Shown here: positions 12,321 through 62,268 of the stretch, piece by piece
Numbering within the stretch: position 1 is the first letter of the stretch
How the letters are laid out: every line of letters starts with the position of its first letter
Virus record (IMG/VR): IMGVR_UViG_2721755728_000011
Length of the DNA stretch: 64,000 nucleotides
Reading direction: 5' to 3' (one strand)
Source: a virus
Taxonomy: Duplodnaviria; Heunggongvirae; Uroviricota; Caudoviricetes
Notes under the pieces: generated by a model
What the model was told of the DNA's origin: nothing
The model's input: the letters and a program-made list of their open reading frames with translations, nothing else
Databases searched by the model: none
Made by a program: the position numbers and the translations under genes

Positions 12321-12484
12321 TCACCATAACTGCTAATCATTCAAACTACTTAACCTGTGACAGAGCCAACACGCAGTCTGTCACTGTCAGGAAAGTGGTA
12401 AAACTGCAACTCAATTACTGCAATGCCCTCGTAATTAAGTGAATTTACAATATCGTCCTGTTCGGAGGGAAGAACGCGGGATGT

Positions 12485-12679: not shown

Positions 12680-12878
12680 GAGGTTGCCCCGTATTCAGTG
12701 TCGCTGATTTGTATTGTCTGAAGTTGTTTTTACGTTAAGTTGATGCGGATCAATTAATACGATACCTGCGTCATAATTGATTATTTGACGTGGTTTGATG
12801 GCGTAGATGCACGTTGTGACATGTAGATGATAATTATTATCATTTTGCGGGTCCTTTCCGGCGATCCGACAGGTTACG

Positions 12879-12890
12879 GGGCGGCGACCT
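12879..12890 (+). other. cos: cosN cohesive-end site (gggcggcgacct)
   Basis: Sequence ...gacaggttacg|gggcggcgacct|cgcgggttttcgctatttatgaaaatttt matches the joined lambda right and left ends from memory. Confidence 0.85.
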
Positions 12891-13067
12891 CGCGGGTTTT
12901 CGCTATTTATGAAAATTTTCCGGTTTAAGGCGTTTCCGTTCTTCTTCGTCGTAACTTAATGTTTTTATTTAAAATACCCCCTGAAAAGAAAGGAAACGAC
13001 AGGTGCTGAAAACGAACTTTTGGGCCTTTGTCGTTTCCTTTCTCTGTTTTTGGCCGTGGAATGAACA

Positions 13068-13587
13068 ATGGAAGTCAACAAAAAGCAGCTGGCTGACATT
13101 TTCGGTGCGAGTATCCGTACCATTCAGAACTGGCAGGAACAGGGAATGCCCGTTCTGCGAGGCGGTGGCAAGGGTAATGAGGTGCTTTATGACTCTGCCG
13201 CCGTCATAAAATGGTATGCCGAAAGGGATGCTGAAATTGAGAACGAAAAGCTGCGCCGGGAGGTTGAAGAACTGCGGCAGGCCAGCGAGGCAGATCTCCA
13301 GCCAGGAACTATTGAGTACGAACGCCATCGACTTACGCGTGCGCAGGCCGACGCACAGGAACTGAAGAATGCCAGAGACTCCGCTGAAGTGGTGGAAACC
13401 GCATTCTGTACTTTCGTGTTGTCGCGGATCGCAGGTGAAATTGCCAGTATTCTCGACGGGCTCCCCCTGTCGGTGCAGCGGCGTTTTCCGGAACTGGAAA
13501 ACCGACATGTTGATTTCCTGAAACGGGATATCATCAAAGCCATGAACAAAGCAGCCGCGCTGGATGAACTGATACCGGGGTTGCTGA

Positions 13588-13613
<26 letters not shown>
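13068..13613 (+). CDS. nu1: Terminase small subunit Nu1
   Basis: 181 aa, MEVNKKQLADIFGASIRTIQNWQEQG..., matches remembered lambda Nu1. Confidence 0.95.
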
Positions 13614-17294
<3,681 letters not shown>

Positions 17295-17314
<20 letters not shown>

Positions 17315-18614
17315 TCTCCCGCATATTGCCAGCATGGCCTTTAATGAGCCGCTGATGCTTGAACCCGCCTATGCGCGGGTTTTCTTTTGTGCGCTTGCAG
17401 GCCAGCTTGGGATCAGCCGCCTGACGGATGCGGTGTCCGGCGACAGCCTGACTGCCCAGGAGGCACTCGCGACGCTGGCATTATCCGGTGATGATGACGG
17501 ACCACGACAGGCCCGCAGTTATCAGGTCATGAACGGCATCGCCGTGCTGCCGGTGTCCGGCACGCTGGTCAGCCGGACGCGGGCGCTGCAGCCGTACTCG
17601 GGGATGACCGGTTACAACGGCATTATCGCCCGTCTGCAACAGGCTGCCAGCGATCCGATGGTGGACGGCATTCTGCTCGATATGGACACGCCCGGCGGGA
17701 TGGTGGCGGGGGCATTTGACTGCGCTGACATCATCGCCCGTGTGCGTGACATAAAACCGGTATGGGCGCTTGCCAACGACATGAACTGCAGTGCAGGTCA
17801 GTTGCTTGCCAGTGCCGCCTCCCGGCGTCTGGTCACGCAGACCGCCCGGACAGGCTCCATCGGCGTCATGATGGCTCACAGTAATTACGGTGCTGCGCTG
17901 GAGAAACAGGGTGTGGAAATCACGCTGATTTACAGCGGCAGCCATAAGGTGGATGGCAACCCCTACAGCCATCTTCCGGATGACGTCCGGGAGACACTGC
18001 AGTCCCGGATGGACGCAACCCGCCGGATGTTTGCGCAGAAGGTGTCGGCATATACCGGCCTGTCCGTGCAGGCTGTGCTGGATACCGAGGCTGCAGTGTA
18101 CAGCGGTCAGGAGGCCATTGATGCCGGACTGGCTGATGAACTTGTTAACAGCACCGATGCGATCACCGTCATGCGTGATGCACTGGATGCACGTAAATCC
18201 CGTCTCTCAGGAGGGCGAATGACCAAAGAGACTCAATCAACAACTGTTTCAGCCACTGCTTCGCAGGCTGACGTTACTGACGTGGGGCCAGCGACGGAGG
18301 GCGAGAACGCCAGCGCGGCGCAGCCGGACGTGAACGCGCAGATCACCGCAGCGGTTGCGGCAGAAAACAGCCGCATTATGGGGATCCTCAACTGTGAGGA
18401 GGCTCACGGACGCGAAGAACAGGCACGCGTGCTGGCAGAAACCCCCGGTATGACCGTGAAAACGGCCCGCCGCATTCTGGCCGCAGCACCACAGAGTGCA
18501 CAGGCGCGCAGTGACACTGCGCTGGATCGTCTGATGCAGGGGGCACCGGCACCGCTGGCTGCAGGTAACCCGGCATCTGATGCCGTTAACGATTTGCTGA
18601 ACACACCAGTGTAA
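17295..18614 (+). CDS. C: Head maturation protease / scaffold C (includes nested Nu3)
   Basis: GTG start giving (M)TAELRNLPHIASMAFNEP...; track ORF extends upstream in frame. Confidence 0.9.
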
Positions 18615-18623
18615 GGGATGTTT

Positions 18624-18956
18624 ATGACGAGCAAAGAAACCTTTACCCATTACCAGCCGCAGGGCAACAGTGACCCGGCTCATACCGCAACCGCGCCCGG
18701 CGGATTGAGTGCGAAAGCGCCTGCAATGACCCCGCTGATGCTGGACACCTCCAGCCGTAAGCTGGTTGCGTGGGATGGCACCACCGACGGTGCTGCCGTT
18801 GGCATTCTTGCGGTTGCTGCTGACCAGACCAGCACCACGCTGACGTTCTACAAGTCCGGCACGTTCCGTTATGAGGATGTGCTCTGGCCGGAGGCTGCCA
18901 GCGACGAGACGAAAAAACGGACCGCGTTTGCCGGAACGGCAATCAGCATCGTTTAA
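18624..18956 (+). CDS. D: Head decoration protein D
   Basis: 110 aa [27 protein letters not shown]..., lambda gpD. Confidence 0.95.
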
Positions 18957-18976
18957 CTTTACCCTTCATCACTAAA

Positions 18977-18998
18977 GGCCGCCTGTGCGGCTTTTTTT
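18977..18998 (+). terminator. Intrinsic terminator hairpin between D and E
   Basis: ggccgc-ctgt-gcggc stem followed by 7 T. Confidence 0.55.
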
Positions 18999-19011
18999 AC
19001 GGGATTTTTTT

Positions 19012-20037
19012 ATGTCGATGTACACAACCGCCCAACTGCTGGCGGCAAATGAGCAGAAATTTAAGTTTGATCCGCTGTTTCTGCGTCTCTTTTTCCGTGA
19101 GAGCTATCCCTTCACCACGGAGAAAGTCTATCTCTCACAAATTCCGGGACTGGTAAACATGGCGCTGTACGTTTCGCCGATTGTTTCCGGTGAGGTTATC
19201 CGTTCCCGTGGCGGCTCCACCTCTGAATTTACGCCGGGATATGTCAAGCCGAAGCATGAAGTGAATCCGCAGATGACCCTGCGTCGCCTGCCGGATGAAG
19301 ATCCGCAGAATCTGGCGGACCCGGCTTACCGCCGCCGTCGCATCATCATGCAGAACATGCGTGACGAAGAGCTGGCCATTGCTCAGGTCGAAGAGATGCA
19401 GGCAGTTTCTGCCGTGCTTAAGGGCAAATACACCATGACCGGTGAAGCCTTCGATCCGGTTGAGGTGGATATGGGCCGCAGTGAGGAGAATAACATCACG
19501 CAGTCCGGCGGCACGGAGTGGAGCAAGCGTGACAAGTCCACGTATGACCCGACCGACGATATCGAAGCCTACGCGCTGAACGCCAGCGGTGTGGTGAATA
19601 TCATCGTGTTCGATCCGAAAGGCTGGGCGCTGTTCCGTTCCTTCAAAGCCGTCAAGGAGAAGCTGGATACCCGTCGTGGCTCTAATTCCGAGCTGGAGAC
19701 AGCGGTGAAAGACCTAGGTAAAGCGGTGTCCTATAAGGGGATGTATGGCGATGTGGCCATCGTCGTGTATTCCGGACAGTACGTGGAAAACGGCGTCAAA
19801 AAGAACTTCCTGCCGGACAACACGATGGTGCTGGGGAACACTCAGGCACGCGGTCTGCGCACCTATGGCTGCATTCAGGATGCGGACGCACAGCGCGAAG
19901 GCATTAACGCCTCTGCCCGTTACCCGAAAAACTGGGTGACCACCGGCGATCCGGCGCGTGAGTTCACCATGATTCAGTCAGCACCGCTGATGCTGCTGGC
20001 TGACCCTGATGAGTTCGTGTCCGTACAACTGGCGTAA
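19012..20037 (+). CDS. E: Major capsid protein E
   Basis: 341 aa MSMYTTAQLLAANEQKFKFDPLFLRLFFRESYPF..., lambda gpE. Confidence 0.95.
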   Translation: MSMYTTAQLLAANEQKFKFDPLFLRLFFRESYPFTTEKVYLSQIPGLVNMALYVSPIVSGEVIRSRGGSTSEFTPGYVKPKHEVNPQMTLRRLPDEDPQNLADPAYRRRRIIMQNMRDEELAIAQVEEMQAVSAVLKGKYTMTGEAFDPVEVDMGRSEENNITQSGGTEWSKRDKSTYDPTDDIEAYALNASGVVNIIVFDPKGWALFRSFKAVKEKLDTRRGSNSELETAVKDLGKAVSYKGMYGDVAIVVYSGQYVENGVKKNFLPDNTMVLGNTQARGLRTYGCIQDADAQREGINASARYPKNWVTTGDPAREFTMIQSAPLMLLADPDEFVSVQLA

Positions 20038-20041
20038 TCAT

Positions 20042-20063
20042 GGCCCTTCGGGGCCATTGTTTC
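20042..20063 (+). terminator. Hairpin terminator after E (ggccc-ttcg-gggcc then T-rich)
   Basis: UUCG tetraloop hairpin immediately after the E stop codon. Confidence 0.5.
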
Positions 20064-20078
20064 TCTGTGGAGGAGTCC

Positions 20079-20477
20079 ATGACGAAAGATGAACTGATTG
20101 CCCGTCTCCGCTCGCTGGGTGAACAACTGAACCGTGATGTCAGCCTGACGGGGACGAAAGAAGAACTGGCGCTCCGTGTGGCAGAGCTGGAAGAGGAGCT
20201 TGATGACACGGATGAAACTGCCGGTCAGGACACCCCTCTCAGCCGGGAAAATGTGCTGACCGGACATGAAAATGAGGTGGGATCAGCGCAGCCGGATACC
20301 GTGATTCTGGATACGTCTGAACTGGTCACGGTCGTGGCACTGGTGAAGCTGCATACTGATGCACTTCACGCCACGCGGGATGAACCTGTGGCATTTGTGC
20401 TGCCGGGAACGGCGTTTCGTGTCTCTGCCGGTGTGGCAGCCGAAATGACAGAGCGCGGCCTGGCCAGAATGCAATAA
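20079..20477 (+). CDS. Fi: DNA-packaging / head assembly protein Fi
   Basis: 132 aa MTKDELIARLRSLGEQLNRDV..., lambda Fi. Confidence 0.9.
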   Translation: MTKDELIARLRSLGEQLNRDVSLTGTKEELALRVAELEEELDDTDETAGQDTPLSRENVLTGHENEVGSAQPDTVILDTSELVTVVALVKLHTDALHATRDEPVAFVLPGTAFRVSAGVAAEMTERGLARMQ

Positions 20478-20488
20478 CGGGAGGCGCT

Positions 20489-20842
20489 GTGGCTGATTTC
20501 GATAACCTGTTCGATGCTGCCATTGCCCGCGCCGATGAAACGATACGCGGGTACATGGGAACGTCAGCCACCATTACATCCGGTGAGCAGTCAGGTGCGG
20601 TGATACGTGGTGTTTTTGATGACCCTGAAAATATCAGCTATGCCGGACAGGGCGTGCGCGTTGAAGGCTCCAGCCCGTCCCTGTTTGTCCGGACTGATGA
20701 GGTGCGGCAGCTGCGGCGTGGAGACACGCTGACCATCGGTGAGGAAAATTTCTGGGTAGATCGGGTTTCGCCGGATGATGGCGGAAGTTGTCATCTCTGG
20801 CTTGGACGGGGCGTACCGCCTGCCGTTAACCGTCGCCGCTGA
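20489..20842 (+). CDS. FII: Head-tail connector protein FII
   Basis: 117 aa, GTG start, (M)ADFDNLFDAAIARADETIRGYMG..., lambda FII. Confidence 0.9.
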   Translation: MADFDNLFDAAIARADETIRGYMGTSATITSGEQSGAVIRGVFDDPENISYAGQGVRVEGSSPSLFVRTDEVRQLRRGDTLTIGEENFWVDRVSPDDGGSCHLWLGRGVPPAVNRRR

Positions 20843-20853
20843 AAGGGGGATGT

Positions 20854-21432
20854 ATGGCCATAAAAGGTCTTGAGCAGGCCGTTGAAAACCTCAGCCGTAT
20901 CAGCAAAACGGCGGTGCCTGGTGCCGCCGCAATGGCCATTAACCGCGTTGCTTCATCCGCGATATCGCAGTCGGCGTCACAGGTTGCCCGTGAGACAAAG
21001 GTACGCCGGAAACTGGTAAAGGAAAGGGCCAGGCTGAAAAGGGCCACGGTCAAAAATCCGCAGGCCAGAATCAAAGTTAACCGGGGGGATTTGCCCGTAA
21101 TCAAGCTGGGTAATGCGCGGGTTGTCCTTTCGCGCCGCAGGCGTCGTAAAAAGGGGCAGCGTTCATCCCTGAAAGGTGGCGGCAGCGTGCTTGTGGTGGG
21201 TAACCGTCGTATTCCCGGCGCGTTTATTCAGCAACTGAAAAATGGCCGGTGGCATGTCATGCAGCGTGTGGCCGGGAAAAACCGTTACCCCATTGATGTG
21301 GTGAAAATCCCGATGGCGGTGCCGCTGACCACGGCGTTTAAACAAAATATTGAGCGGATACGGCGTGAACGTCTTCCGAAAGAGCTGGGCTATGCGCTGC
21401 AGCATCAACTGAGGATGGTAATAAAGCGATGA
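20854..21432 (+). CDS. Z: Tail completion protein Z
   Basis: 192 aa MAIKGLEQAVENLSRISKTAVPG..., lambda Z. Confidence 0.9.
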   Translation: MAIKGLEQAVENLSRISKTAVPGAAAMAINRVASSAISQSASQVARETKVRRKLVKERARLKRATVKNPQARIKVNRGDLPVIKLGNARVVLSRRRRRKKGQRSSLKGGGSVLVVGNRRIPGAFIQQLKNGRWHVMQRVAGKNRYPIDVVKIPMAVPLTTAFKQNIERIRRERLPKELGYALQHQLRMVIKR

Positions 21433-21824
21433 AACATACTGAACTCCGTGCAGCCGTACTGGATGCACTGGAGAAGCATGACACCGGGGCGACGTTTTTT
21501 GATGGTCGCCCCGCTGTTTTTGATGAGGCGGATTTTCCGGCAGTTGCCGTTTATCTCACCGGCGCTGAATACACGGGCGAAGAGCTGGACAGCGATACCT
21601 GGCAGGCGGAGCTGCATATCGAAGTTTTCCTGCCTGCTCAGGTGCCGGATTCAGAGCTGGATGCGTGGATGGAGTCCCGGATTTATCCGGTGATGAGCGA
21701 TATCCCGGCACTGTCAGATTTGATCACCAGTATGGTGGCCAGTGGCTATGACTACCGGCGCGACGATGATGCGGGCCTGTGGAGTTCAGCCGATCTGACT
21801 TATGTCATTACCTATGAAATGTGA
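21429..21824 (+). CDS. U: Tail terminator protein U
   Basis: 131 aa, lambda U. Confidence 0.9.
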
Positions 21825-21831
21825 GGACGCT

Positions 21832-22572
21832 ATGCCTGTACCAAATCCTACAATGCCGGTGAAAGGTGCCGGGACCACCCTGTGGGTTTATAAGGGGAGC
21901 GGTGACCCTTATGCGAATCCGCTTTCAGACGTTGACTGGTCGCGTCTGGCAAAAGTTAAAGACCTGACGCCCGGCGAACTGACCGCTGAGTCCTATGACG
22001 ACAGCTATCTCGATGATGAAGATGCAGACTGGACTGCGACCGGGCAGGGGCAGAAATCTGCCGGAGATACCAGCTTCACGCTGGCGTGGATGCCCGGAGA
22101 GCAGGGGCAGCAGGCGCTGCTGGCGTGGTTTAATGAAGGCGATACCCGTGCCTATAAAATCCGCTTCCCGAACGGCACGGTCGATGTGTTCCGTGGCTGG
22201 GTCAGCAGTATCGGTAAGGCGGTGACGGCGAAGGAAGTGATCACCCGCACGGTGAAAGTCACCAATGTGGGACGTCCGTCGATGGCAGAAGATCGCAGCA
22301 CGGTAACAGCGGCAACCGGCATGACCGTGACGCCTTCCAGCACCTCGGTGGTGAAAGGGCAGAGCACCACGCTGACCGTGGCCTTCCAGCCGGAGGGCGT
22401 AACCGACAAGAGCTTTCGTGCGGTGTCTGCGGATAAAACAAAAGCCACCGTGTCGGTCAGTGGTATGACCATCACCGTGAACGGCGTTGCTGCAGGCAAG
22501 GTCAACATTCCGGTTGTATCCGGTAATGGTGAGTTTGCTGCGGTTGCAGAAATTACCGTCACCGCCAGTTAA
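21832..22572 (+). CDS. V: Major tail tube protein V
   Basis: 246 aa [22 protein letters not shown]..., lambda V with C-terminal Ig-like domain. Confidence 0.95.
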
Positions 22573-22587
22573 TCCGGAGAGTCAGCG

Positions 22588-23010
22588 ATGTTCCTGAAAA
22601 CCGAATCATTTGAACATAACGGTGTGACCGTCACGCTTTCTGAACTGTCAGCCCTGCAGCGCATTGAGCATCTCGCCCTGATGAAACGGCAGGCAGAACA
22701 GGCGGAGTCAGACAGCAACCGGAAGTTTACTGTGGAAGACGCCATCAGAACCGGCGCGTTTCTGGTGGCGATGTCCCTGTGGCATAACCATCCGCAGAAG
22801 ACGCAGATGCCGTCCATGAATGAAGCCGTTAAACAGATTGAGCAGGAAGTGCTTACCACCTGGCCCACGGAGGCAATTTCTCATGCTGAAAACGTGGTGT
22901 ACCGGCTGTCTGGTATGTATGAGTTTGTGGTGAATAATGCCCCTGAACAGACAGAGGACGCCGGGCCCGCAGAGCCTGTTTCTGCGGGAAAGTGTTCGAC
23001 GGTGAGCTGA
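22588..23010 (+). CDS. G: Tail assembly chaperone G
   Basis: 140 aa MFLKTESFEHNGVTVTLSELSALQRIEHLALMKR..., lambda G. Confidence 0.9.
   Translation: MFLKTESFEHNGVTVTLSELSALQRIEHLALMKRQAEQAESDSNRKFTVEDAIRTGAFLVAMSLWHNHPQKTQMPSMNEAVKQIEQEVLTTWPTEAISHAENVVYRLSGMYEFVVNNAPEQTEDAGPAEPVSAGKCSTVS
22986..22992 (+). promoter_or_regulatory. Programmed -1 ribosomal frameshift slippery heptamer GGGAAAG (G to GT)
   Basis: Heptamer at the G/T overlap, as in lambda. Confidence 0.8.
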
Positions 23011-23426
23011 GTTTTGCCCTGAAACTGGCGCGTGAGATGGGGCGACCCGACTGGCGTGCCATGCTTGCCGGGATGTCATCCACGGAGTATGCCGACTGGC
23101 ACCGCTTTTACAGTACCCATTATTTTCATGATGTTCTGCTGGATATGCACTTTTCCGGGCTGACGTACACCGTGCTCAGCCTGTTTTTCAGCGATCCGGA
23201 TATGCATCCGCTGGATTTCAGTCTGCTGAACCGGCGCGAGGCTGACGAAGAGCCTGAAGATGATGTGCTGATGCAGAAAGCGGCAGGGCTTGCCGGAGGT
23301 GTCCGCTTTGGCCCGGACGGGAATGAAGTTATCCCCGCTTCCCCGGATGTGGCGGACATGACGGAGGATGACGTAATGCTGATGACAGTATCAGAAGGGA
23401 TCGCAGGAGGAGTCCGGTATGGCTGA
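22992..23426 (+). CDS. T: T portion of tail assembly chaperone GT (frameshift product)
   Basis: 144-aa -1 frame ORF overlapping G end; lambda T-like. Confidence 0.85.
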   Translation: MFDGELSFALKLAREMGRPDWRAMLAGMSSTEYADWHRFYSTHYFHDVLLDMHFSGLTYTVLSLFFSDPDMHPLDFSLLNRREADEEPEDDVLMQKAAGLAGGVRFGPDGNEVIPASPDVADMTEDDVMLMTVSEGIAGGVRYG

Positions 23427-24765
23427 ACCGGTAGGCGATCTGGTCGTTGATTTGAGTCTGGATGCGGCCAGATTTGACGAGCAGATGGCCAGAGTCAGGC
23501 GTCATTTTTCCGGTACGGAAAGTGATGCGAAAAAAACAGCGGCAGTCGTTGAACAGTCGCTGAGCCGACAGGCGCTGGCTGCACAGAAAGCGGGGATTTC
23601 CGTCGGGCAGTATAAAGCCGCCATGCGTATGCTGCCTGCACAGTTCACCGACGTGGCCACGCAGCTTGCAGGCGGGCAAAGTCCGTGGCTGATCCTGCTG
23701 CAACAGGGGGGGCAGGTGAAGGACTCCTTCGGCGGGATGATCCCCATGTTCAGGGGGCTTGCCGGTGCGATCACCCTGCCGATGGTGGGGGCCACCTCGC
23801 TGGCGGTGGCGACCGGTGCGCTGGCGTATGCCTGGTATCAGGGCAACTCAACCCTGTCCGATTTCAACAAAACGCTGGTCCTTTCCGGCAATCAGGCGGG
23901 ACTGACGGCAGATCGTATGCTGGTCCTGTCCAGAGCCGGGCAGGCGGCAGGGCTGACGTTTAACCAGACCAGCGAGTCACTCAGCGCACTGGTTAAGGCG
24001 GGGGTAAGCGGTGAGGCTCAGATTGCGTCCATCAGCCAGAGTGTGGCGCGTTTCTCCTCTGCATCCGGCGTGGAGGTGGACAAGGTCGCTGAAGCCTTCG
24101 GGAAGCTGACCACAGACCCGACGTCGGGGCTGACGGCGATGGCACGCCAGTTCCATAACGTGACGACGGAGCAGATTGCGTATGTTGCTCAGTTGCAGCG
24201 TTCCGGCGATGAAGCCGGGGCATTGCAGGCGGCGAACGAGGCCGCAACGAAAGGGTTTGATGACCAGACCCGCCGCCTGAAAGAGAACATGGGCACGCTG
24301 GAGACCTGGGCAGACAGGACTGCGCGGGCATTCAAATCCATGTGGGATGCGGTGCTGGATATCGGTCGTCCTGATACCGCGCAGGAGATGCTGATTAAGG
24401 CAGAGGCTGCGTTTAAGAAAGCAGACGACATCTGGAATCTGCGCAAGGATGATTATTTTGTTAACGATGAAGCGCGGGCGCGTTACTGGGATGATCGTGA
24501 AAAGGCCCGTCTTGCGCTTGAAGCCGCCCGAAAGAAGGCTGAGCAGCAGACTCAACAGGACAAAAATGCGCAGCAGCAGAGCGATACCGAAGCGTCACGG
24601 CTGAAATATACCGAAGAGGCGCAGAAGGCTTACGAACGGCTGCAGACGCCGCTGGAGAAATATACCGCCCGTCAGGAAGAACTGAACAAGGCACTGAAAG
24701 ACGGGAAAATCCTGCAGGCGGATTACAACACGCTGATGGCGGCGGCGAAAAAGGATTATGAAGGG
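23419..24765 (+). pseudogene. H: Tape-measure protein H, 5' portion only (about codons 1..448)
   Basis: Matches remembered lambda H through ...LMAAAKKDYE, then runs into antisense of the other H copy; the 574-aa track ORF is read-through. Confidence 0.85.
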
Positions 24766-53871: not shown

Positions 53872-54414
53872 GTGGCTAAAAAAGGCGACTTTAAGCCTAC
53901 CCAGAAAGAGGTTGACCAAGCTATTACTTGCTTGAAAAAAGTAACTTTTAGCGGAGTTTCGTGGACCGGAAGTGAGGGACGAACCCCAATCTGGTTTAAA
54001 TTGGATCTCAAAGCTTTTGATGAAATTGGCAACCCAATCACAGGCATAAGATTTATGCTTCACTGGCGTTCTCCTATCGTTGAAGGGGTGGATATAGTGA
54101 AGCTTTCATTTGTGATGTTTCTTCATGACAGGCGCATTTACGCGCTTGACCCGTACCCTGCGCATAACAAGTCACACCGTAATAAATCTATAGTGCACCA
54201 TCCAGATTTTGTTGAGGTGGCTCGAGGTCCTCACTATCACATGTACTTCGAATCAGCTGGGGAAGAAATTGCACTCAAGCTTGAAACGAACATCAAGCCA
54301 GATGATTTTTTTGGCTACTGGAATTATTTTTGCGAGGCGCTTAATATCATATATGAAGGCAGCCCACCTTTACCGAATCAAGATAAATCAGGTCAGCTAT
54401 CATGGGAAATGTAA
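53872..54414 (+). CDS. Unknown protein (180 aa), first gene of the cI-downstream operon
   Basis: Co-directional with cI, 97 bp downstream; GTG start; no TM segments or recognisable motifs; lower GC than flanks. Confidence 0.55.
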   Translation: MAKKGDFKPTQKEVDQAITCLKKVTFSGVSWTGSEGRTPIWFKLDLKAFDEIGNPITGIRFMLHWRSPIVEGVDIVKLSFVMFLHDRRIYALDPYPAHNKSHRNKSIVHHPDFVEVARGPHYHMYFESAGEEIALKLETNIKPDDFFGYWNYFCEALNIIYEGSPPLPNQDKSGQLSWEM

Positions 54415-55178
54415 CGTGTTCAACAGTCATATCTAAGCTCGGGTTTGAATGCCACCCAATGAGCGACACGTTGCTGCGCGTTATTAGTCCCTTCACATAC
54501 TACGATGATTGTGAGCAGATAAGCGTATTCGTTCAAGAGATGAGTGGTCAGTATAGGGTTACAGACTACTGCGATACATTGATGAATATTGAATCACGCG
54601 GCATCCACCTGACTAAAAAGAAAATTGATCTGATCAGGTCATCACTCGCTTCGCAAGGAATTTCATTAAATGACTCTGGAGAGATATCTGCGTGGGCAGA
54701 TGAGTCGTCCGTTGGACAGGTAACTGCAAATGTTATTCGTGGTGGGATTCTTGCATCCGCCCAAACTGCTGATTGGTACGCTGAGGTCAAAGACGATAAG
54801 TTTGAAAAATGTGTAATCAGTTACTTAAAATCAGCAGGGCTTGGGAAGCGACTAGCCTTAAAGGAAAAAGTGAAAGGTATTAGTGGGCATAACATTACTG
54901 TTCCGTTAACGCTAAGGAATGAGTCTCGACTAATACCACCAAAACGCGGGTTTACGGTAAGCCTTGCCAGCAGTAAAGGATGGAATACTGCCCACTCAAC
55001 AGTTGGGAAGATTGTTGACTTAAGTCAGGTCGTTCCTGACATAAACAATAGATTTGTAATAGTTGACAGCGATGGGTTAACACCTGAGCTACAGCAACTA
55101 TCACTACTATTTAATGATACCGCACGAGTGTTGCCATTCCATACCAGAGACTCTTGGATTGACTCTCTGGTAGCCTAG
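54402..55178 (+). CDS. Unknown protein (258 aa), second gene of the cI-downstream operon
   Basis: Overlaps upstream ORF by 13 nt; followed by a strong intrinsic terminator; no recognisable motifs. Confidence 0.6.
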   Translation: MGNVTCSTVISKLGFECHPMSDTLLRVISPFTYYDDCEQISVFVQEMSGQYRVTDYCDTLMNIESRGIHLTKKKIDLIRSSLASQGISLNDSGEISAWADESSVGQVTANVIRGGILASAQTADWYAEVKDDKFEKCVISYLKSAGLGKRLALKEKVKGISGHNITVPLTLRNESRLIPPKRGFTVSLASSKGWNTAHSTVGKIVDLSQVVPDINNRFVIVDSDGLTPELQQLSLLFNDTARVLPFHTRDSWIDSLVA

Positions 55179-55180
55179 AA

Positions 55181-55209
55181 AAACCCGGCCTCTGCGCCGG
55201 GTTTTCTTT
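55181..55209 (+). terminator. Intrinsic terminator ending the cI operon
   Basis: cccggc-ctctgc-gccggg followed by ttttcttt. Confidence 0.7.
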
Positions 55210-55468
55210 ACCTCACGTTCGCCTCCCCTATTTAACATCCGCATATGTGCTAACCCACGAACTAACACGCCAGCAATACAGTCCTTTCTCCCCTACAGAC
55301 CAATCTTCAATCTTTGCAAAAATAAATTCCCTTACATATCAAAATCTTATCTAATAAAATTAATGAGTTACAAAATTTCGTACTTATAGTTCTTGATAAT
55401 ATCGAACTATTAGTTCATTATTATCGCCATCTGCAGGATGCTGGCAGCCAAACGGAACAGATTGGCAG

Positions 55469-55502
55469 GCTCTTTAACTTCGATGGGGCGCTGACAAAGT
55501 GC
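55469..55502 (+). promoter_or_regulatory. nutL: nutL-like site (boxA gctctttaa plus boxB hairpin gcgc-tgacaaa-gtgc)
   Basis: Upstream of N; boxB resembles P22 type. Confidence 0.55.
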
Positions 55503-55621
55503 AAACAGATACCAAACGAGATGGATTTGGCGGTGATGTGAATTGCAGCTGCAACGACAGCAACCAGAAGATCAGCATCTGGCACATCACCCCCAAAGCC
55601 ATTTCACATGAGGAAAACATC

Positions 55622-55957
55622 ATGACGGTAATCGTGTACGGGAAATCAACATTTGCAGGAAATGCCAAAACTCGCCGTCATGAGCGGCGCAGAAAGCTGG
55701 CTATCGAGCGTGATGCTATATGCAACATCATCGATTCGATCTTCGGCACAGACAGTGAGGAACCTGTTCAGGAAGCCCCGAGAAAACGTTTAAGCCTTTC
55801 TGAAAAAGCAATATCACTCGGAAGCCTTCGCTGCCAGAAGGCAGAAGAAGTCGAGCGTAAACAGAACCGTATTTACTACCGCAAGCCACGCAGTGAAATG
55901 GGTGTGACTTGTGTTGGTCGCCAGAAAATGAAATTCGGCAACAAACCACTTATTTGA
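55622..55957 (+). CDS. N: Antiterminator N (P22-type ARM, lambda-like C-terminus)
   Basis: MTVIVYGKSTFAGNAKTRRHERRRKLAIER... at N-terminus; C-terminus RKQNRIYYRKPRSEMGVTCVGRQKMKFGNKPLI resembles lambda N. Confidence 0.8.
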   Translation: MTVIVYGKSTFAGNAKTRRHERRRKLAIERDAICNIIDSIFGTDSEEPVQEAPRKRLSLSEKAISLGSLRCQKAEEVERKQNRIYYRKPRSEMGVTCVGRQKMKFGNKPLI

Positions 55958-56035
55958 GGTGAGATATGGAAGAAGAATTTGAAGAGTTCGAAGAGCATCC
56001 TCAGGATGTGATGGAACAATACCAGGACTATCCGT

Positions 56036-56215
56036 ATGACTACGACTATTGATACAAATCAATGGTGTGGACAATTCAAACGATGCAATGGATGCAAGCT
56101 GCAATCGGAATGCATGGTTAAGCCTGAAGAAATGTTTCCTGTAATGGAGGATGGGAAATATGTCGATAAATGGGCAATACGAACGACGGCAATGATTGCC
56201 AGAGAACTTGGTTAA
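56036..56215 (+). CDS. ral: Ral restriction-alleviation protein
   Basis: 59 aa MTTTIDTNQWCGQFKRCNGCKLQSECMVKPEEMFPVMEDGKYVDKWAIRTTAMIARELG, lambda Ral-like. Confidence 0.85.
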   Translation: MTTTIDTNQWCGQFKRCNGCKLQSECMVKPEEMFPVMEDGKYVDKWAIRTTAMIARELG

Positions 56216-56372
56216 CAGAACAACAAAGCTGCCTGATAGTGGCCTTTATTTTTGGCATAAATAACAGAATAAACACTGCACTGTGTATTCATTCCAACGA
56301 GTGAATACACGGAGCAATGTCGCTCGTAACTAAACAGGAGCCGACTTGTTCTGATTATTGGAAATCTTCTTT

Positions 56373-56398
56373 GCCCTCCAGTGTGAGGGCGATTTTTT
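56373..56398 (+). terminator. tL-like intrinsic terminator
   Basis: gccctc-cagtgt-gagggc followed by T6. Confidence 0.6.
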
Positions 56399-56418
56399 AT
56401 CTATGAGGATATGAATAG

Positions 56419-56787
56419 ATGTCAAACATCAAAAAATACATCATTGATTACGACTGGAAAGCATCAATAGAAATTGAAATCGACCATGACGTAATGACAG
56501 AGGAAAAACTTCACCAGATTAATAATTTCTGGTCAGACTCTGAATACCGACTCAATAAACACGGCTCTGTATTAAATGCTGTATTAATCATGCTGGCGCA
56601 ACATGCTCTGCTTATAGCAATTTCAAGCGACTTAAATGCATATGGTGTTGTGTGTGAGTTCGACTGGAATGATGGAAATGGTCAGGAAGGATGGCCTCCA
56701 ATGGATGGTAGCGAAGGAATAAGAATTACCGATATCGATACATCAGGAATATTTGATTCAGATGATATGACTATCAAGGCCGCCTGA
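56419..56787 (+). CDS. ea10: Ea10-like protein
   Basis: 122 aa MSNIKKYIIDYDWKASIEIEIDHD...; matches lambda Ea10 from memory (moderate certainty). Confidence 0.65.
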   Translation: MSNIKKYIIDYDWKASIEIEIDHDVMTEEKLHQINNFWSDSEYRLNKHGSVLNAVLIMLAQHALLIAISSDLNAYGVVCEFDWNDGNGQEGWPPMDGSEGIRITDIDTSGIFDSDDMTIKAA

Positions 56788-56833
56788 GTGCGGCTTTACC
56801 GCATACCAATAACGCTTCACTCGAGGCGTTTTT
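56779..56833 (+). terminator. Tandem hairpins after ea10 (second followed by T-run)
   Basis: gccgc-ctgagt-gcggc and cgcttc-actc-gaggcg plus ttttt. Confidence 0.45.
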
Positions 56834-56859
56834 CGTTATGTATAAATAAGGAGCACACC

Positions 56860-57024
56860 ATGCAATATGCCATTGCAGGGTGGCCTGTTGCTGGCTGCCC
56901 TTCCGAATCTTTACTTGAACGAATTACCCGTAAATTACGTGACGGATGGAAACGCCTTATCGACATACTTAATCAGCCAGGAGTCCCGAAAAATGGATCA
57001 AACAATTATGGCTATCCAGACTAA
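56860..57024 (+). CDS. cIII: cIII (FtsH inhibitor)
   Basis: 54 aa [54 protein letters not shown]. Confidence 0.95.
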   Translation: MQYAIAGWPVAGCPSESLLERITRKLRDGWKRLIDILNQPGVPKNGSNNYGYPD

Positions 57025-57157
57025 ATTCACTATCGCCACTTTTATTGGCGATGAAAAGATGTTTCGTGAGGCCGTCGACGCTTATAAAAAATGGATATTA
57101 ATACAGAAACTGAGATCAGGCAAAAGCATTCACTACCCCCCTTTCCTGTTTTCCTAA
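56993..57157 (+). CDS. kil: Kil (host cell-division inhibitor)
   Basis: [37 protein letters not shown]..., overlaps cIII and gam as in lambda. Confidence 0.8.
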
Positions 57158-57507
57158 TCAGCCTGGCATTTCGCGGGCGATATTTTCACAGCTATTTCAG
57201 GAGTTCGGCCATGAACGCTTATTACATTCAGGATCGTCTTGAGGCTCAGAGCTGGGCGCGTCACTACCAGCAGATAGCCCGTGAAGAGAAAGAGGCAGAA
57301 CTGGCAGACGACATGGAAAAAGGCCTGCCCCAGCACCTGTTTGAATCGCTATGCATCGATCATTTGCAACGCCACGGGGCCAGCAAAAAAGCCATTACCC
57401 GTGCGTTTGATGACGATGTTGAGTTTCAGGAGCGCATGGCAGAACACATCCGGTACATGGTTGAAACAATTGCTCACCACCAGGTTGATATTGATTCAGA
57501 GGTATAA
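57091..57507 (+). CDS. gam: Gam (RecBCD inhibitor; GamL with internal GamS start)
   Basis: 138 aa [21 protein letters not shown]...; internal [21 protein letters not shown]. Confidence 0.95.
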
Positions 57508-57512
57508 AACGG

Positions 57513-58298
57513 ATGAGTACAGCACTCGCAACGCTGGCAGGGAAGCTGGCTGAACGTGTCGGCATGGATTCTGTCGACCCACAGGAACTGATCACCACTC
57601 TTCGCCAGACGGCATTTAAAGGTGATGCCAGCGATGCGCAGTTCATCGCATTGTTGATCGTCGCCAACCAGTACGGCCTTAATCCGTGGACGAAAGAAAT
57701 TTACGCCTTCCCTGATAAGCAGAACGGCATTGTTCCGGTGGTGGGCGTTGATGGCTGGTCCCGCATCATCAATGAAAACCAGCAGTTTGATGGCATGGAC
57801 TTTGAGCAGGACAATGAATCCTGTACATGCCGGATTTACCGCAAGGACCGTAATCATCCGATCTGCGTTACCGAATGGATGGATGAATGCCGCCGCGAAC
57901 CATTCAAAACCCGCGAAGGCAGAGAAATCACGGGGCCGTGGCAGTCGCATCCTAAACGGATGTTACGGCATAAAGCTATGATTCAGTGTGCCCGCCTGGC
58001 CTTCGGATTTGCTGGTATCTATGACAAGGATGAAGCCGAGCGCATTGTCGAAAATACTGCATACACTGCAGAACGCCAGCCGGAACGCGACATCACTCCG
58101 GTAAACGATGAAACCATGCAGGAGATTAACACTCTGCTGATCGCCCTGGATAAAACATGGGATGACGACTTATTGCCGCTCTGTTCCCAGATATTTCGCC
58201 GCGACATTCGCGCATCGTCAGAACTGACACAGGCCGAAGCAGTGAAAGCTCTTGGATTCCTGAAACAGAAAGCCGCAGAGCAGAAGGTGGCAGCATGA
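57513..58298 (+). CDS. bet: Bet (Red-beta single-strand annealing protein)
   Basis: 261 aa [38 protein letters not shown]... Confidence 0.95.
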
Positions 58299-58975
58299 CA
58301 CCGGACATTATCCTGCAGCGTACCGGGATCGACGTGAGAGCTGTCGAACAGGGGGATGATGCGTGGCACAAATTACGGCTCGGTGTCATCACAGCGTCAG
58401 AAGTTCATAATGTAATAGCAAAACCCCGCTCCGGAAAAAAGTGGCCTGACATGAAAATGTCCTACTTCCACACCCTGCTTGCTGAGGTTTGCACCGGTGT
58501 GGCTCCGGAAGTTAACGCTAAAGCGCTGGCCTGGGGAAAACAGTACGAAAACGACGCCAGAGCCCTGTTTGAGTTTACTTCCGGCGTGAATGTTACTGAA
58601 TCCCCGATCATCTATCGCGACGAAAGTATGCGCACCGCCTGCTCTCCGGATGGTTTATGCAGTGACGGCAACGGCCTTGAACTGAAATGCCCGTTTACCT
58701 CCCGGGATTTCATGAAATTCCGGCTCGGTGGTTTCGAGGCCATAAAATCGGCTTACATGGCCCAGGTGCAGTACAGCATGTGGGTGACACGAAAAGATGC
58801 CTGGTACTTTGCCAACTATGACCCGCGTATGAAGCGTGAAGGACTGCATTATGTCGTGATTGAGCGGAATGAAAAGTACATGGCGAGTTTTGACGAGATG
58901 GTGCCGGAGTTCATCGAAAAAATGGACGAGGCACTGGCTGAAATTGGTTTTGTATTTGGGGAGCAATGGCGATGA
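58295..58975 (+). CDS. exo: Exo (Red-alpha 5'-3' exonuclease)
   Basis: 226 aa [58 protein letters not shown]... Confidence 0.95.
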
Positions 58976-59154
58976 CGCATCCTCACGATAATATCCGGGT
59001 AGGCGCGATCACTTTCGTCTACTCCGTTACAAAGCGAGGCTGGGTATTTCCCGGCCTTTCTGTTATCAGAAATCCACTGAAAGCACAGCGGCTGGCTGAG
59101 AAGATAAATAATAAACGGGAGGCGGTATGCACAAAGCATCTCCTGTTGAGTTAA
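58966..59154 (+). CDS. Small lambda ea-region ORF (orf60a-like)
   Basis: 62-aa ORF overlapping exo end; position matches lambda orf60a. Confidence 0.5.
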
Positions 59155-59318
59155 GAACGAGTATTGAGATGGCACATAGCCTTGCTCAAATTGGAGTCAG
59201 GTTTGTGCCAATACCAGTAGAAACAGACGAAGAATTTCATACGTTAGCCACATCCCTTTCACAAAAGCTGGAAATGATGGTGGCGAAAGCAGAAGCAGAT
59301 GAAAGAGACCAGGTATGA
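59127..59318 (+). CDS. Small lambda ea-region ORF (orf63-like)
   Basis: 63-aa ORF; position as in lambda. Confidence 0.5.
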   Translation: MHKASPVELRTSIEMAHSLAQIGVRFVPIPVETDEEFHTLATSLSQKLEMMVAKAEADERDQV

Positions 59319-59395
59319 CAACCACTGAATGCATTTTTCTGGCAGCGGGCTTCATATTCTGTGTGCTTATGCTTGCCGACATGGGGCTTGTTCAG

Positions 59396-59610
59396 TGACA
59401 CCTCAGCAGGAAAACGCCCTTCGCAGCATTGCCCGTCAGGCTAATTCTGAAATCAAAAAAGCCAGACAGCAGTTTCCGGATAAAAACGTCGATGACATTT
59501 GCCGTAGCGTACTGAAGAAGCACCGCGAAACGGTAACGCTGATGGGATTCACACCGACTCATTTAAGCCTGGCAATCGGCATGTTAAACGGCGTTTTTAA
59601 GGAACGGTGA
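59396..59610 (+). CDS. Small lambda ea-region ORF (orf61-like; GTG start)
   Basis: About 71 aa from (M)TPQQENALRSIARQ...; track ORF begins further upstream. Confidence 0.45.
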
Positions 59611-59708
59611 ACATGAAAAGCAAAATCATCAGGGAGCTACAGGCTCCTTTTTTATTATTCGCATTTACCCTCAAGCGTATTAACCAACAATTCAGGGATT
59701 AATGAAAG

Positions 59709-59930
59709 ATGGCGGACATCATTGATTCAGCATCAGAAATTGAAGAATTACAGCGCAATACAGCAATAAAAATGCGTCGTCTGAACTACCAGACTATATC
59801 CGCCACTCATTGTTGTGAGTGTGGCGATCCCATAGATGAACGAAGACGCCTGGTCGTTCAGGGTTGTCGGACTTGTGCAAGTTGCCAGGAGGATCTGGAG
59901 CTTATCAGTAAACAGAGAGGTTCGAAGTGA
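59709..59930 (+). CDS. DksA/TraR-family C4 zinc-finger protein
   Basis: 73 aa with CCECGDPIDERRRLVVQGCRTCASCQ motif. Confidence 0.75.
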   Translation: MADIIDSASEIEELQRNTAIKMRRLNYQTISATHCCECGDPIDERRRLVVQGCRTCASCQEDLELISKQRGSK

Positions 59931-60334
59931 GCGAAATTAACTCTCAGGCACTGCGTGAAGCGGCAGAGAAAGCCGGTGAAGATAAGTGGCAGGCTAAAAA
60001 AATAAATGGTGATTTTTTCGTTATTCGTCACGGTAGTTATACAAGACAGCATGGCTACACATCGTATCAACCCATTGCGGAGATTGATTGTAAGCCAGTC
60101 CGGGATTTTGTTGCCAAGGCTAATCCGGCTACCGTGCTGGAATTACTGGATGAACTGGAAGCAGCAAAAAAGCGCATTGCAGAACTGGAAGCGCGGGAAA
60201 TACTGCTCCCGGAACGTAGCAGCATGCTTCATCGAACAGATTTTCACGATGATTACCAAACGGTAATGGCATACAAAGTTTCTGAAGTCATCGATGCAAT
60301 CCGCGCTACTGGCATTCGCATCAAAGGAGAGTGA
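59927..60334 (+). CDS. Ea22-like protein (135 aa)
   Basis: Coiled-coil segment LELLDELEAAKKRIAELEARE; position in ea region. Confidence 0.45.
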   Translation: MSEINSQALREAAEKAGEDKWQAKKINGDFFVIRHGSYTRQHGYTSYQPIAEIDCKPVRDFVAKANPATVLELLDELEAAKKRIAELEAREILLPERSSMLHRTDFHDDYQTVMAYKVSEVIDAIRATGIRIKGE

Positions 60335-60335
60335 G

Positions 60336-61091
60336 ATGATTCACTACCACGGTGGGCCTATTACTCCTGATACGTGCGCAATGAGAGCATGGAAAGGGCG
60401 ACATGCGTTTATCAGTTTTGCGCATTCAGGCCAGATCAATCTCGCGGCTGAATACTGTCAGTCGTTCGCGCTGGACAACGGTGCATTCACCGCCTGGAAA
60501 GCAGCTGGCAAAAACAAAATCGACTGGAGCGATTACTACGAGTTTGTTGCTCGCTGGAAGAATCACCCAGGATTCGATTTTGCCATTATCCCGGATGTTA
60601 TTGATGGCGGAGAGGAGGAAAATGATGCGCTTCTGAATGAGTGGCCTCACGGAAAACTAGCTGGCGTTCCAGTGTGGCACATGAATGAAAGTGACGAGCG
60701 ATTTATTCATTTGTGCAATGAGTTTCCGCGAGTGGCTATCGGTAGTTGTGGCGACTATGACGTAAAGCGCCCAACTCTTGCGGTAGCCAGAATGAAAGAC
60801 CTGATTCGTCACATTGTTGATGGGCATGGTCAGCCGGTTACGAAACTACATGGATTGCGCATGTTAAATCCGCTGATATTCACAAAATTACCCTTAGCCA
60901 GCGCAGATAGTACGAACGTCGCTCGAAACATCGGTATTGATAAAGCCTGGTCTGGGGCTTATGCACCTGCAAGTAAAGAGACACGCGCAGCATTAATGGT
61001 AGAACGGATTGAGGCACACAATAGCCCTGGTTCTCTTGCGTATTGTGAACAACGCGACCGCTTTGAAATGCAATTGCAACTAGCACTTTAA
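60336..61091 (+). CDS. Hypothetical 251-aa protein; weak tRNA-guanine-transglycosylase/DpdA-like motif (speculative)
   Basis: Strong SD before ATG at 60336; motif SFALDNGAF loosely resembles the TGT TDSGGFQ motif; not confirmed. Confidence 0.5.
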   Translation: MIHYHGGPITPDTCAMRAWKGRHAFISFAHSGQINLAAEYCQSFALDNGAFTAWKAAGKNKIDWSDYYEFVARWKNHPGFDFAIIPDVIDGGEEENDALLNEWPHGKLAGVPVWHMNESDERFIHLCNEFPRVAIGSCGDYDVKRPTLAVARMKDLIRHIVDGHGQPVTKLHGLRMLNPLIFTKLPLASADSTNVARNIGIDKAWSGAYAPASKETRAALMVERIEAHNSPGSLAYCEQRDRFEMQLQLAL

Positions 61092-61101
61092 GGACTAACA
61101 A

Positions 61102-61890
61102 ATGACCACTATTACCAAAGAACGTATTGAATTGTTCATTAAAAATCCGCTTGAAAACGGGCTTACTCGTGGCGAACAAATGGAACTGGCACGAATTGCA
61201 CTGGCATCACTGGAACGCGAACTGATTCGCCACGAGCATGCCAAATGGTCTGACTCCACATTTGGCTGCGTTGGCCCCATTGGTCCACTGAAACACCTCT
61301 CAAAAGAGGCTCTGGAAGCCGCAGCCGAACCAGACGATCTCAGCGAGTGGGCTGATATGCATTTCCTGTTGTGGGATGCACAGCGCCGTGCTGGCATCAG
61401 CGATGCTGAAATTACCGCTGCTATGGAAGATAAATTGAAGATCAACATGGAGCGCCAGTGGCCTGAACCAAAAGATGGTGAGCCTCGCTTGCACATTAAA
61501 GAACCCGGCAACTCTCCGGTAATTCCGGATGGTTTATCCACGGTATGCGCTGAGGCTTATCAGGTTGTAGGAGTTATGGCAGATGCGCTTGGTGTATTCG
61601 GTGATGCAGCAGTACAGAAAGTTCTGGATAACCTGTCACAGCAAAAACTTGTTCACAGAGATGTGCTGCCGTTCTCGCTTCCGGTAACTCCGGATGGTTG
61701 GATAAGCTGTAGTGAGCTAATGCCAGATGATGGTCAGCACGTAATTATTTTATGTGATGGCGCATTCGTTCTTTATGCGCAATATCGAGACGGAGAGTTT
61801 TTCGATATTGTCCGCAATGGTGATGAATTTTTCGAAACACAGAGTCGCAATGTAACCGACTGGATGCAACTACCAGAACCTCCTCTTTGA
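61102..61890 (+). CDS. Hypothetical protein, probable DUF550 (dATP/dGTP pyrophosphohydrolase-like) plus DUF551 architecture
   Basis: 262 aa; C-terminal WISCSELMPDDGQHVIILCDGAFVLYAQY...WMQLPEPP resembles DUF551, common in lambdoid ea regions. Confidence 0.5.
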   Translation: MTTITKERIELFIKNPLENGLTRGEQMELARIALASLERELIRHEHAKWSDSTFGCVGPIGPLKHLSKEALEAAAEPDDLSEWADMHFLLWDAQRRAGISDAEITAAMEDKLKINMERQWPEPKDGEPRLHIKEPGNSPVIPDGLSTVCAEAYQVVGVMADALGVFGDAAVQKVLDNLSQQKLVHRDVLPFSLPVTPDGWISCSELMPDDGQHVIILCDGAFVLYAQYRDGEFFDIVRNGDEFFETQSRNVTDWMQLPEPPL

Positions 61891-61986
61891 TAGCTAAGCT
61901 TATACATATCTTTTACATCAGCAATCTATTGTTAATCTCCAATCAATGTTACGTTGTCATCTCTCTCATGCTTTGGAGGTAGTGAT

Positions 61987-62166
61987 ATGTCTTGTCCAAA
62001 ATGCGGTTCTGGAAATATTGCAAAAGAAAAAACAATGCGTGGATGGTCTGATGATTATGTGTGCTGCGATTGCGGATACAACGACTCTAAAGACGCATTT
62101 GGAGAGCGTGGTAAAAACGATTTTGTCAAAATTAATAAAGAACGCGAAGGCAACGAAAAAAGCTAA
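61987..62166 (+). CDS. Small zinc-ribbon protein
   Basis: MSCPKCGSGN...YVCCDCGY two CxxC pairs; SD ggaggt upstream. Confidence 0.5.
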   Translation: MSCPKCGSGNIAKEKTMRGWSDDYVCCDCGYNDSKDAFGERGKNDFVKINKEREGNEKS

Positions 62167-62229
62167 TTTATTTATTCATATATGAAAACAATGTAACCAA
62201 TATTCGAATTGAAGAACTGAAAGAACACC

Positions 62230-62254
62230 AAGCCGCCTGATGGCGGTTTTTTTT
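62230..62254 (+). terminator. Intrinsic terminator (gccgcc-tgat-ggcgg plus T8)
   Basis: Read directly from sequence. Confidence 0.65.
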
Positions 62255-62268
62255 ATTGGAGACAAGAA

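Follow-up and report, generated by a model that had tools for sequence, protein, structure and literature searches.

Deletion of dpdA from phage CAjan abolishes the modified nucleoside dPreQ0 (Table 2, PMC6884629), and the DpdA of phage 9g gives dPreQ0 in plasmid DNA when it is expressed alone in Escherichia coli. Expression of nt-1 DpdA2 alone in E. coli has the same result, and here the dPreQ0 is lost in a queD mutant. A 'third group' of 76 phages carries DpdA only, and these singleton DpdAs group by host clade, including a gamma-Proteobacteria clade (PMC6884629). Among the catalogued phages BTP1, SPN3UB, SfI, HK106 and 7-11 encode DpdA without preQ0 or G+ genes (Hutinet et al. 2019, Supplementary Data 1, PMC6884629). 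The present analysis concerns a 64,000-nucleotide (nt) stretch of Caudoviricetes DNA (IMG/VR record IMGVR_UViG_2721755728_000011), referred to as the window, and within it an open reading frame of 251 amino acids (aa), ORF1, together with the 262-aa open reading frame that follows it, ORF2. ORF1 is best explained as a stand-alone ('singleton') phage DpdA that is active with a base made by the host, with a probability of roughly 0.65. The assignment as a DpdA rests on homology, fold, catalytic residues and the pathway linkage seen in relatives, from which we infer the chemistry in this phage.

60336..61091, + strand: ORF1, 251 aa, putative singleton phage DpdA-family transglycosylase (TGT-superfamily TIM barrel without the zinc subdomain)

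The search of the PHROGs database with ORF1 gave a match to phrog_887, 'queuine tRNA-ribosyltransferase', with an E-value of 2.3e-103, and the DpdA of CAjan matched the same family (8.2e-96). Direct comparison of ORF1 with CAjan DpdA using BLASTP gave an E-value of 3e-9 with 25% identity over 152 residues. An alignment of the ORF1 family was built from 58 homologues of 33–94% identity, and comparison of CAjan DpdA with the profile of this alignment using hhalign gave 98.9% and an E-value of 1.3e-17. The database searched contained more than 7,800 relatives of ORF1 at E <= 1e-3, with 813 cluster representatives at the 50% level. The initial annotation had tentatively linked the 251-aa frame to the TGT/DpdA family through a SFALDNGAF motif, which occupies residues 43–51 (nt 60462–60488). 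This proposal was borne out by the phrog_887 match and the BLASTP and hhalign comparisons with CAjan DpdA, as well as by the fold and by two catalytic aspartates, one of which, D47, is the invariant Asp of the motif itself.

In CAjan DpdA residue D206 is the proposed nucleophile and D63 the proposed general base that deprotonates the incoming preQ0, while S64, F67, D105, H132, G153, G154 and F189 are pocket residues (Kot et al., PMC7544227). The CAjan residues were mapped onto ORF1 through the BLASTP alignment and their conservation was counted in the 58 homologues. Both catalytic positions were found to be occupied by aspartates.

60474..60476, + strand: codon of D47 in the LDNGAF motif, aligned with CAjan D63, conserved in 58/58
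60906..60908, + strand: codon of D191 in the SADST motif, aligned with CAjan D206, conserved in 58/58

The two serines that flank D191, S189 and S192, are likewise present in 58/58 homologues. The pocket residues F67, H132 and G153 of CAjan DpdA align with F51 (F or Y in 56/58), H115 (57/58) and G136 (55/58) of ORF1.

The structure of ORF1 was modelled from the 58-sequence alignment using AlphaFold2, which gave a mean pLDDT of 91.9 and a pTM of 0.88. Strands and helices alternate in the model, which is predicted to form a TGT-type (β/α)8 barrel, and the conserved residues are located at or just past the C-terminal ends of the predicted β-strands, as expected of a TIM-barrel active site. TGT and ArcTGT were among the best structural matches, with targets of 373–577 residues compared to 251 for ORF1. 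The structural comparison gave 16.0 for Cap10 and 15.2 for DpdA, with sequence identities of 9% and 14%, respectively; since this margin is small and the Foldseek search of the PDB was unspecific, structure alone is insufficient for the assignment as a DpdA. When the predicted viral structures of BFVD were searched with Foldseek, 29 matches were obtained at E <= 1e-3. All nine of the matches named for a function were phage queuine or queuosine tRNA-ribosyltransferases, the remainder being uncharacterised or unnamed. Two of these nine come from phages that appear in the published DpdA list, Mycobacterium phage Bella96 and Dinoroseobacter phage R5C. No cysteine is conserved across the 58 homologues, and the only invariant or near-invariant histidines are H5, H115 and H172. 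The chain ends approximately 60 residues past the nucleophile and so does not include the zinc subdomain of TGT, consistent with the absence from ORF1 of a zinc-binding Cys/His cluster in a C-terminal subdomain.

No 7-deazaguanine synthesis or uptake (Que) gene was found in the 64-kb window, and the lack of preQ0 genes in the phage is the defining feature of the singleton DpdA subgroup. The gene queC is present in 5424 of the 5426 complete E. coli genomes, so the host is able to supply a preQ0-type base. The neighbours of DpdA were surveyed in 160 related loci, which were gathered with a closer alignment than the 58-sequence one. In relatives of 44–57% identity from other bacteria, genes for QueC, QueD, a QueE-like protein, FolE or a YhhQ-family protein adjoin the DpdA homologue. 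A YhhQ-family (Vut_1) transporter gene lies directly 3' of the homologue in loci L081, L061 and L034, with three weaker cases. QueC and a radical-SAM QueE-like gene lie near it in L075, a QueE-like gene overlaps its start in L067, and FolE, QueD and a QueE-like gene are close by in L072. The DpdA homologue of Caulobacter phage DMCA directly adjoins a QueD gene.

The same survey revealed a conserved protein of approximately 80 aa, phrog_37496, whose gene runs up to or into the start of the DpdA homologue in some loci and closely follows the homologue in others. It was located upstream in L035 (4756–5004), L038 (3590–3982), L045 (4594–5004), L048 (4732–5004), L051 (4612–5004), L062 (4660–5004), L079 (4543–4998) and L154 (2329–2580), and downstream in L052 (5696–5998), L066 (5747–5998) and L057 (803–1081). 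These loci belong to Pseudomonas, Cupriavidus, Paraburkholderia, Acidovorax, one metagenome-assembled genome of Bacteroidetes and one viral contig. The conserved core of the protein reads NIYRHxF..CP..G..I.Y.LE....VEHI....HE.IAD.L...GG......HHGV.I.T. and the 7-deazaguanine DNA pathway may have in it a previously undescribed accessory factor. The possibility that phrog_37496 is QueF-like was considered but not supported: neither Pfam, a PDB profile search nor an hhalign comparison with E. coli QueF yielded significant evidence for it.

Several observations weigh against ORF1 as an active DpdA. The Pfam TGT model PF01702 matched 0/58 family members even at E <= 10, and PDB searches with the single ORF1 sequence and with the family profile returned nothing relevant. 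The validated CAjan DpdA likewise fails both PF01702 and the single-sequence PDB search, and for this reason those negatives were not counted against the membership of ORF1. There was also no match for ORF1 in Pfam, NCBIfam or PADLOC, and the hhalign comparison of the 58-sequence alignment with E. coli Tgt, which was represented by its single sequence and not by a TGT family profile, was not significant. The counterpart of the CAjan pocket residue D105 is D90 of ORF1, where Asp is present in just 31/58 homologues; at D87, close by, Asp is found in 57/58, so that the register of the alignment around D105 is uncertain and may be shifted. The literature search yielded no experiment on ORF1 or on any lambdoid or P22-like orthologue. 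The level of modification is very low in both of the measured DpdA-only phages that contain dADG: phage 7-11 has 50 dADG per million nucleotides, about 0.02% of G (PMC6884629), and MED16 has 354 per million, about 0.13% of G, which by our arithmetic amounts to approximately 9 and 33 bases per genome. The DNA of MED16 was still cut by the guanine-site restriction enzymes tested, which makes an anti-restriction role doubtful, a hypothesis and not a finding. In the DpdA-only mycobacteriophage Orion, whose host makes no preQ0, no modification was detected (PMC6884629).

The sequence of ORF1 was compared with phage records using tblastn. The closest of the published relatives were in Salmonella phages BTP1 and SPN3UB, both with 92.8% identity, followed by Shigella phage SfI (67.6%), Pantoea phage MED16 (38%), and HK106 and Salmonella phage 7-11 (both 35.9%). 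MED16 is the one phage of this comparison outside Supplementary Data 1 of Hutinet et al. 2019 (PMC6884629). The enzyme class and the near-identical orthologues of ORF1 were thus already known and catalogued in 2019, and the finding for ORF1 is largely known as a result. The gene is present in 200 of the 5426 complete E. coli genomes (approximately 4%), and 188 E. coli genomes contain a sequence at least 99% identical. Judged by strain names and sources among the matches listed, many of the carriers look cattle-associated or of Shiga-toxin type. The BTP1 orthologue (93% identical) and others are labelled 'queuine tRNA-ribosyltransferase' in RefSeq phage records, while the RefSeq/PGAP label of the E. 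coli copies listed is 'hypothetical protein', and no NCBIfam or Pfam model covering the ORF1 family was found. Re-annotation of the E. coli copies is therefore justified.

ORF1 and ORF2 belong to an E. coli lambdoid prophage, in which they follow an ea22-like gene and precede xis/int. The strand that carries them also has gam, bet and exo 5' of the pair and xis and int 3' of it. The initial annotation had placed frames of 251 and 262 aa in the int-proximal ea region, and it had taken the longer one for a fusion of DUF550 (MazG-like) with DUF551; the coordinates and the gam-bet-exo and xis-int neighbours agree with the former statement, and the Pfam matches given below with the latter. The genes and sites around ORF1 are as follows.

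59927..60334, + strand: Ead/Ea22-like gene, directly 5' of ORF1 (Pfam PF13935, 2.6e-17; RefSeq annotation)
60324..60329, + strand: Shine-Dalgarno site AAGGAG of ORF1, 6 nt 5' of ATG 60336, read from the sequence
61102..61890, + strand: ORF2, 262 aa, EaA-like mosaic protein, beginning 10 nt past the ORF1 stop
61225..61512, + strand: DUF550 (dATP-dGTP pyrophosphohydrolase) domain of ORF2, residues 42–137 (Pfam PF04447, 1e-41)
61696..61884, + strand: DUF551 domain of ORF2, residues 199–261 (Pfam PF04448, 2.9e-17)

The list of open reading frames allows two starts for the + strand frame ending at 61091, with ATG 60294 giving 265 aa and ATG 60336 giving 251 aa. The start was assigned to 60336 because of the MIHYHG residues with which ORF1 and homologues from many genera begin, the AAGGAG site, the position of the upstream stop and the RefSeq annotation, in which the start is identical. 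The stop of the ea22-like gene (60332–60334) is separated from the ATG of ORF1 by one base, and the two genes are therefore probably translationally coupled. Neither ORF1 nor ORF2 is a chance open reading frame, given the many database relatives of ORF1 and the Pfam matches of ORF2. From the ea22-like gene to the end of ORF2 there is no terminator-like site with more than 5 stem pairs, and the sole + strand site inside the ORF1/ORF2 pair is a weak 5-pair stem at 61515. The absence of a strong terminator, together with the strand shared with gam-bet-exo and xis-int, places both genes in the early leftward (pL-type) operon.

Over its last 9.8 kb (54200–64000) the window is 99.97% identical to the torS-adjacent prophage of E. 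coli 13E0767, and the RefSeq annotation of that strain was applied to this stretch only, to which the colinear match is limited. Outside it the window is not colinear with the 13E0767 prophage, as seen for 12468–24763 and 36741–46896: the 12-kb block matches the prophage reversed (98.4%) and the other, 10-kb block matches forward (99.4%). The window may represent a rearranged prophage or parts of two. An antirestriction Ral-family gene at approximately 56036–56215 (+ strand; located from L002 1837–2016) shares the early operon with ORF1, so that one anti-restriction function is already present there. Upstream of the early-operon genes and after a hypothetical gene is a DUF1828-domain gene (54402–55178, + strand; located from L002 203–979), which could be a moron or a defence gene. 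A 70-aa open reading frame just 3' of ORF2 (61954–62166, + strand) contains two CxxC pairs and matches phrog_2945. Below threshold, Pfam matches it to a zinc-ribbon family and to Lar, a family of restriction-alleviation proteins, the latter with 22.4 bits where 28.6 are required, and the gene that overlaps it is named 'Eag protein' in RefSeq. A strong terminator-like hairpin lies 3' of this frame at 62230–62249.

The DUF550 domain of ORF2, a family whose current Pfam name is dATP/dGTP pyrophosphohydrolase, scored 141.5 bits against a cut-off of 23 and covered profile positions 1–96 of 97, while the DUF551 domain scored 63.7 bits against a cut-off of 22. An acidic motif, E69-x-x-E72 ... E82-x-x-D85, was read from the sequence. 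The arrangement EXXE...EXXD is the acidic metal-binding motif of MazG-like proteins, and the acidic residues of ORF2 align, weakly (E 0.69), with the matching part of the S-2L MazZ structure 7ODY. The DUF550 domain of P22 EaA shares 76.7% identity with that of ORF2. Conversion of dGTP or dATP to the monophosphate and pyrophosphate (PPi) has been described for DUF550 proteins of Z-genome phages (PMC12884076), which are distant from ORF2, and hydrolysis of dGTP or dATP to the monophosphate and PPi is the most likely predicted activity of the ORF2 domain. The pairing of the two genes was counted with a domain-specific search for a DUF550 domain within 100 nt of the DpdA gene. Such a domain adjoins DpdA in 7/160 related loci overall, comprising 6/25 viral loci of at least 90% identity, 1/21 viral loci of 75–90%, 0/34 viral loci of 60–75% and 0/80 genomes of other species. 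DUF551 was found beside DpdA in 12 of the 25 closest viral loci. The gene 3' of DpdA is mosaic, and ORF1 and ORF2 are neighbours that do not form a conserved module.

This count bears directly on the suggestion that ORF1 and ORF2 work together, with the DUF550 pyrophosphohydrolase lowering dGTP or cleaning the purine pool for modification by DpdA. The suggestion draws on the common strand and the 10-nt spacing, which recurs between DpdA and the eaA-like gene of BTP1, on the handling of guanine nucleotides or bases by both proteins, and on the Z-genome phages, in which DUF550/MazZ feeds a base-replacement pathway. A functional pair was nevertheless rejected as distinctly unlikely because of the rarity of the pairing in the domain-specific search. 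DUF550 is also far commoner than DpdA (501 against 108 phage records, the DUF550 ones mostly from Klebsiella phages), P22 carries eaA without DpdA, and the features annotated at or beside the DpdA match in SfI and KO-TP1 include no DUF550 gene. Furthermore DpdA swaps bases in polymerised DNA, for which dGMP is not needed. An action of ORF1 on tRNA or another RNA, with 7-deazaguanine inserted to retune host translation during lytic growth, is unlikely as well. The superfamily was founded on tRNA enzymes, TGT and ArcTGT rank high among the structural matches, and the very low DNA modification of 7-11 and MED16 could be a side activity of such an enzyme. However, the closest validated relative works on DNA, E. 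coli has its own Tgt, and ORF1 is a bare barrel of 251 aa that has neither the zinc subdomain nor the C-terminal RNA-binding domains of TGT and ArcTGT, in keeping with the larger size of the structural targets and the absence of a conserved Cys or His cluster.

ORF1 could also have been repurposed away from nucleic acids. It might bind or transfer a deazaguanine-protein conjugate in the manner of Cap10, or it might serve as a counter-defence protein by intercepting the 7-deazaguanine precursors on which host immunity draws (type IV CBASS Cap9/Cap10, QatABCD, Dpd). This is very unlikely, as the lead of Cap10 over DpdA is small and accompanied by the lower identity, PADLOC gave no match and the window contains no Cap9/QueC-like or CD-NTase partner. 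In addition, the invariance of both transglycosylase aspartates agrees with a catalyst of base exchange, and the relatives adjoin genes for preQ0 synthesis or uptake and not immune genes. Finally, ORF1 might be a decaying or functionless passenger of the variable ea region, which is dispensable in lambda and P22, and a DpdA-only phage that is free of modification, Orion, does exist. Here the chance is slight indeed: the reading frame is intact and preceded by a strong Shine-Dalgarno site, the sequence is almost unchanged across the 188 E. coli genomes, the family is large with active-site residues that remain invariant across 33–94% identity, and the structure model is confident.

What ORF1 would use as a substrate, what it would produce, how far it would modify DNA and to what end can be predicted for a singleton DpdA as follows. 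During lytic growth, ORF1 would be expressed as part of the early leftward operon (gam-bet-exo ... xis-int), and the enzyme would flip particular guanines out of double-stranded DNA. A covalent intermediate between Asp191 and the deoxyribose would form with release of guanine, and a 7-deazaguanine base, deprotonated on entry by Asp47, would be installed in its place. The FolE-QueD-QueE-QueC pathway of the host would provide the incoming base, preQ0 itself or a closely related derivative, giving dPreQ0 and/or dADG as the end product in DNA. The modified sites would probably be few and sequence-specific, as opposed to bulk replacement, and shielding these sites against host nucleases would be the most likely benefit. 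ORF2 is a separate EaA-family protein, brought next to ORF1 by phage mosaicism and not as an obligate partner.

If ORF1 is active, the prophages that carry it, in approximately 4% of the complete E. coli genomes, could introduce 7-deazaguanine into DNA from a host queuosine precursor, with possible consequences for restriction, for the signals obtained in sequencing and for the host range of phages. A more speculative and rather doubtful extension is that the lambdoid and P22-like singleton DpdAs in general use host preQ0 to place a few sequence-specific 7-deazaguanines, possibly dADG, that serve a purpose other than bulk modification. Such marks could allow escape from one particular nuclease or defence, act as a self-mark of the phage, or interfere with 7-deazaguanine-dependent immunity. 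Were this extension true, the combination of an E. coli host and a lambda-like phage would make this the most tractable system in which to study the purpose of low-level 7-deazaguanine marks. A lambdoid prophage in E. coli, for which queC, queD, queF and tgt mutants are ready, is a convenient place to settle the function of a lone DpdA. Knowledge of the enzyme class is unchanged by these findings.

When ORF1 was compared with the known systems, the bacterial DpdA of Salmonella Montevideo (PDB 7UI4) was found to have a chain of 413 residues, compared with the 251 aa of ORF1, which has no conserved Cys cluster. Bacterial DpdA has a zinc site, requires DpdB and forms part of a host defence island, whereas the neighbours of ORF1 are phage early genes, with no Dpd partner genes and no PADLOC match. 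ORF1 differs from TGT (PF01702) and ArcTGT in having no PF01702 match, no zinc subdomain and no RNA-binding domains. Its similarity to Cap10 of type IV CBASS is structural only, there being no Cap9 (QueC-like) or CD-NTase gene in the window. The closest known counterparts of ORF2 are the MazZ-type DUF550 protein of SH-Ab 15497 and P22 EaA: residues 42–137 match PF04447 over its full length and the acidic motif is present. Compared with the MazZ of Z-genome phages, ORF2 is without a PurZ/DatZ context and its DUF550 domain is fused to DUF551, not to DUF5664.

Among the other systems compared with ORF1 are the DpdA1 proteins of the Queuovirinae, CAjan and 9g. The CAjan protein shares its PHROG, the catalytic Asp pair and several pocket residues with ORF1, and 9g DpdA functions alone in E. 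coli on host preQ0. CAjan DpdA differs from ORF1 in its 25% identity, its length of 306 aa and its clustering with folE, queD, queE, queC and a transporter; it replaces approximately 32% of G (PMC6884629), and a far lower level is expected for ORF1, which has no synthesis cluster. The singleton DpdAs of gamma-proteobacterial phages belong to the same family as ORF1 and share its setting, with DpdA present and preQ0 genes absent from the phage. Among these singleton relatives DNA has been analysed only for the distant 7-11 and MED16 (36–38%), and both contain low-level dADG. The copies in BTP1 and SPN3UB are the same orthologue as ORF1, and the BTP1 copy also shares its position, flanked by ea22 and eaA in the vicinity of int. 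Compared with these singleton DpdAs, ORF1 shows nothing substantially different and sits in an E. coli lambdoid prophage by torS.

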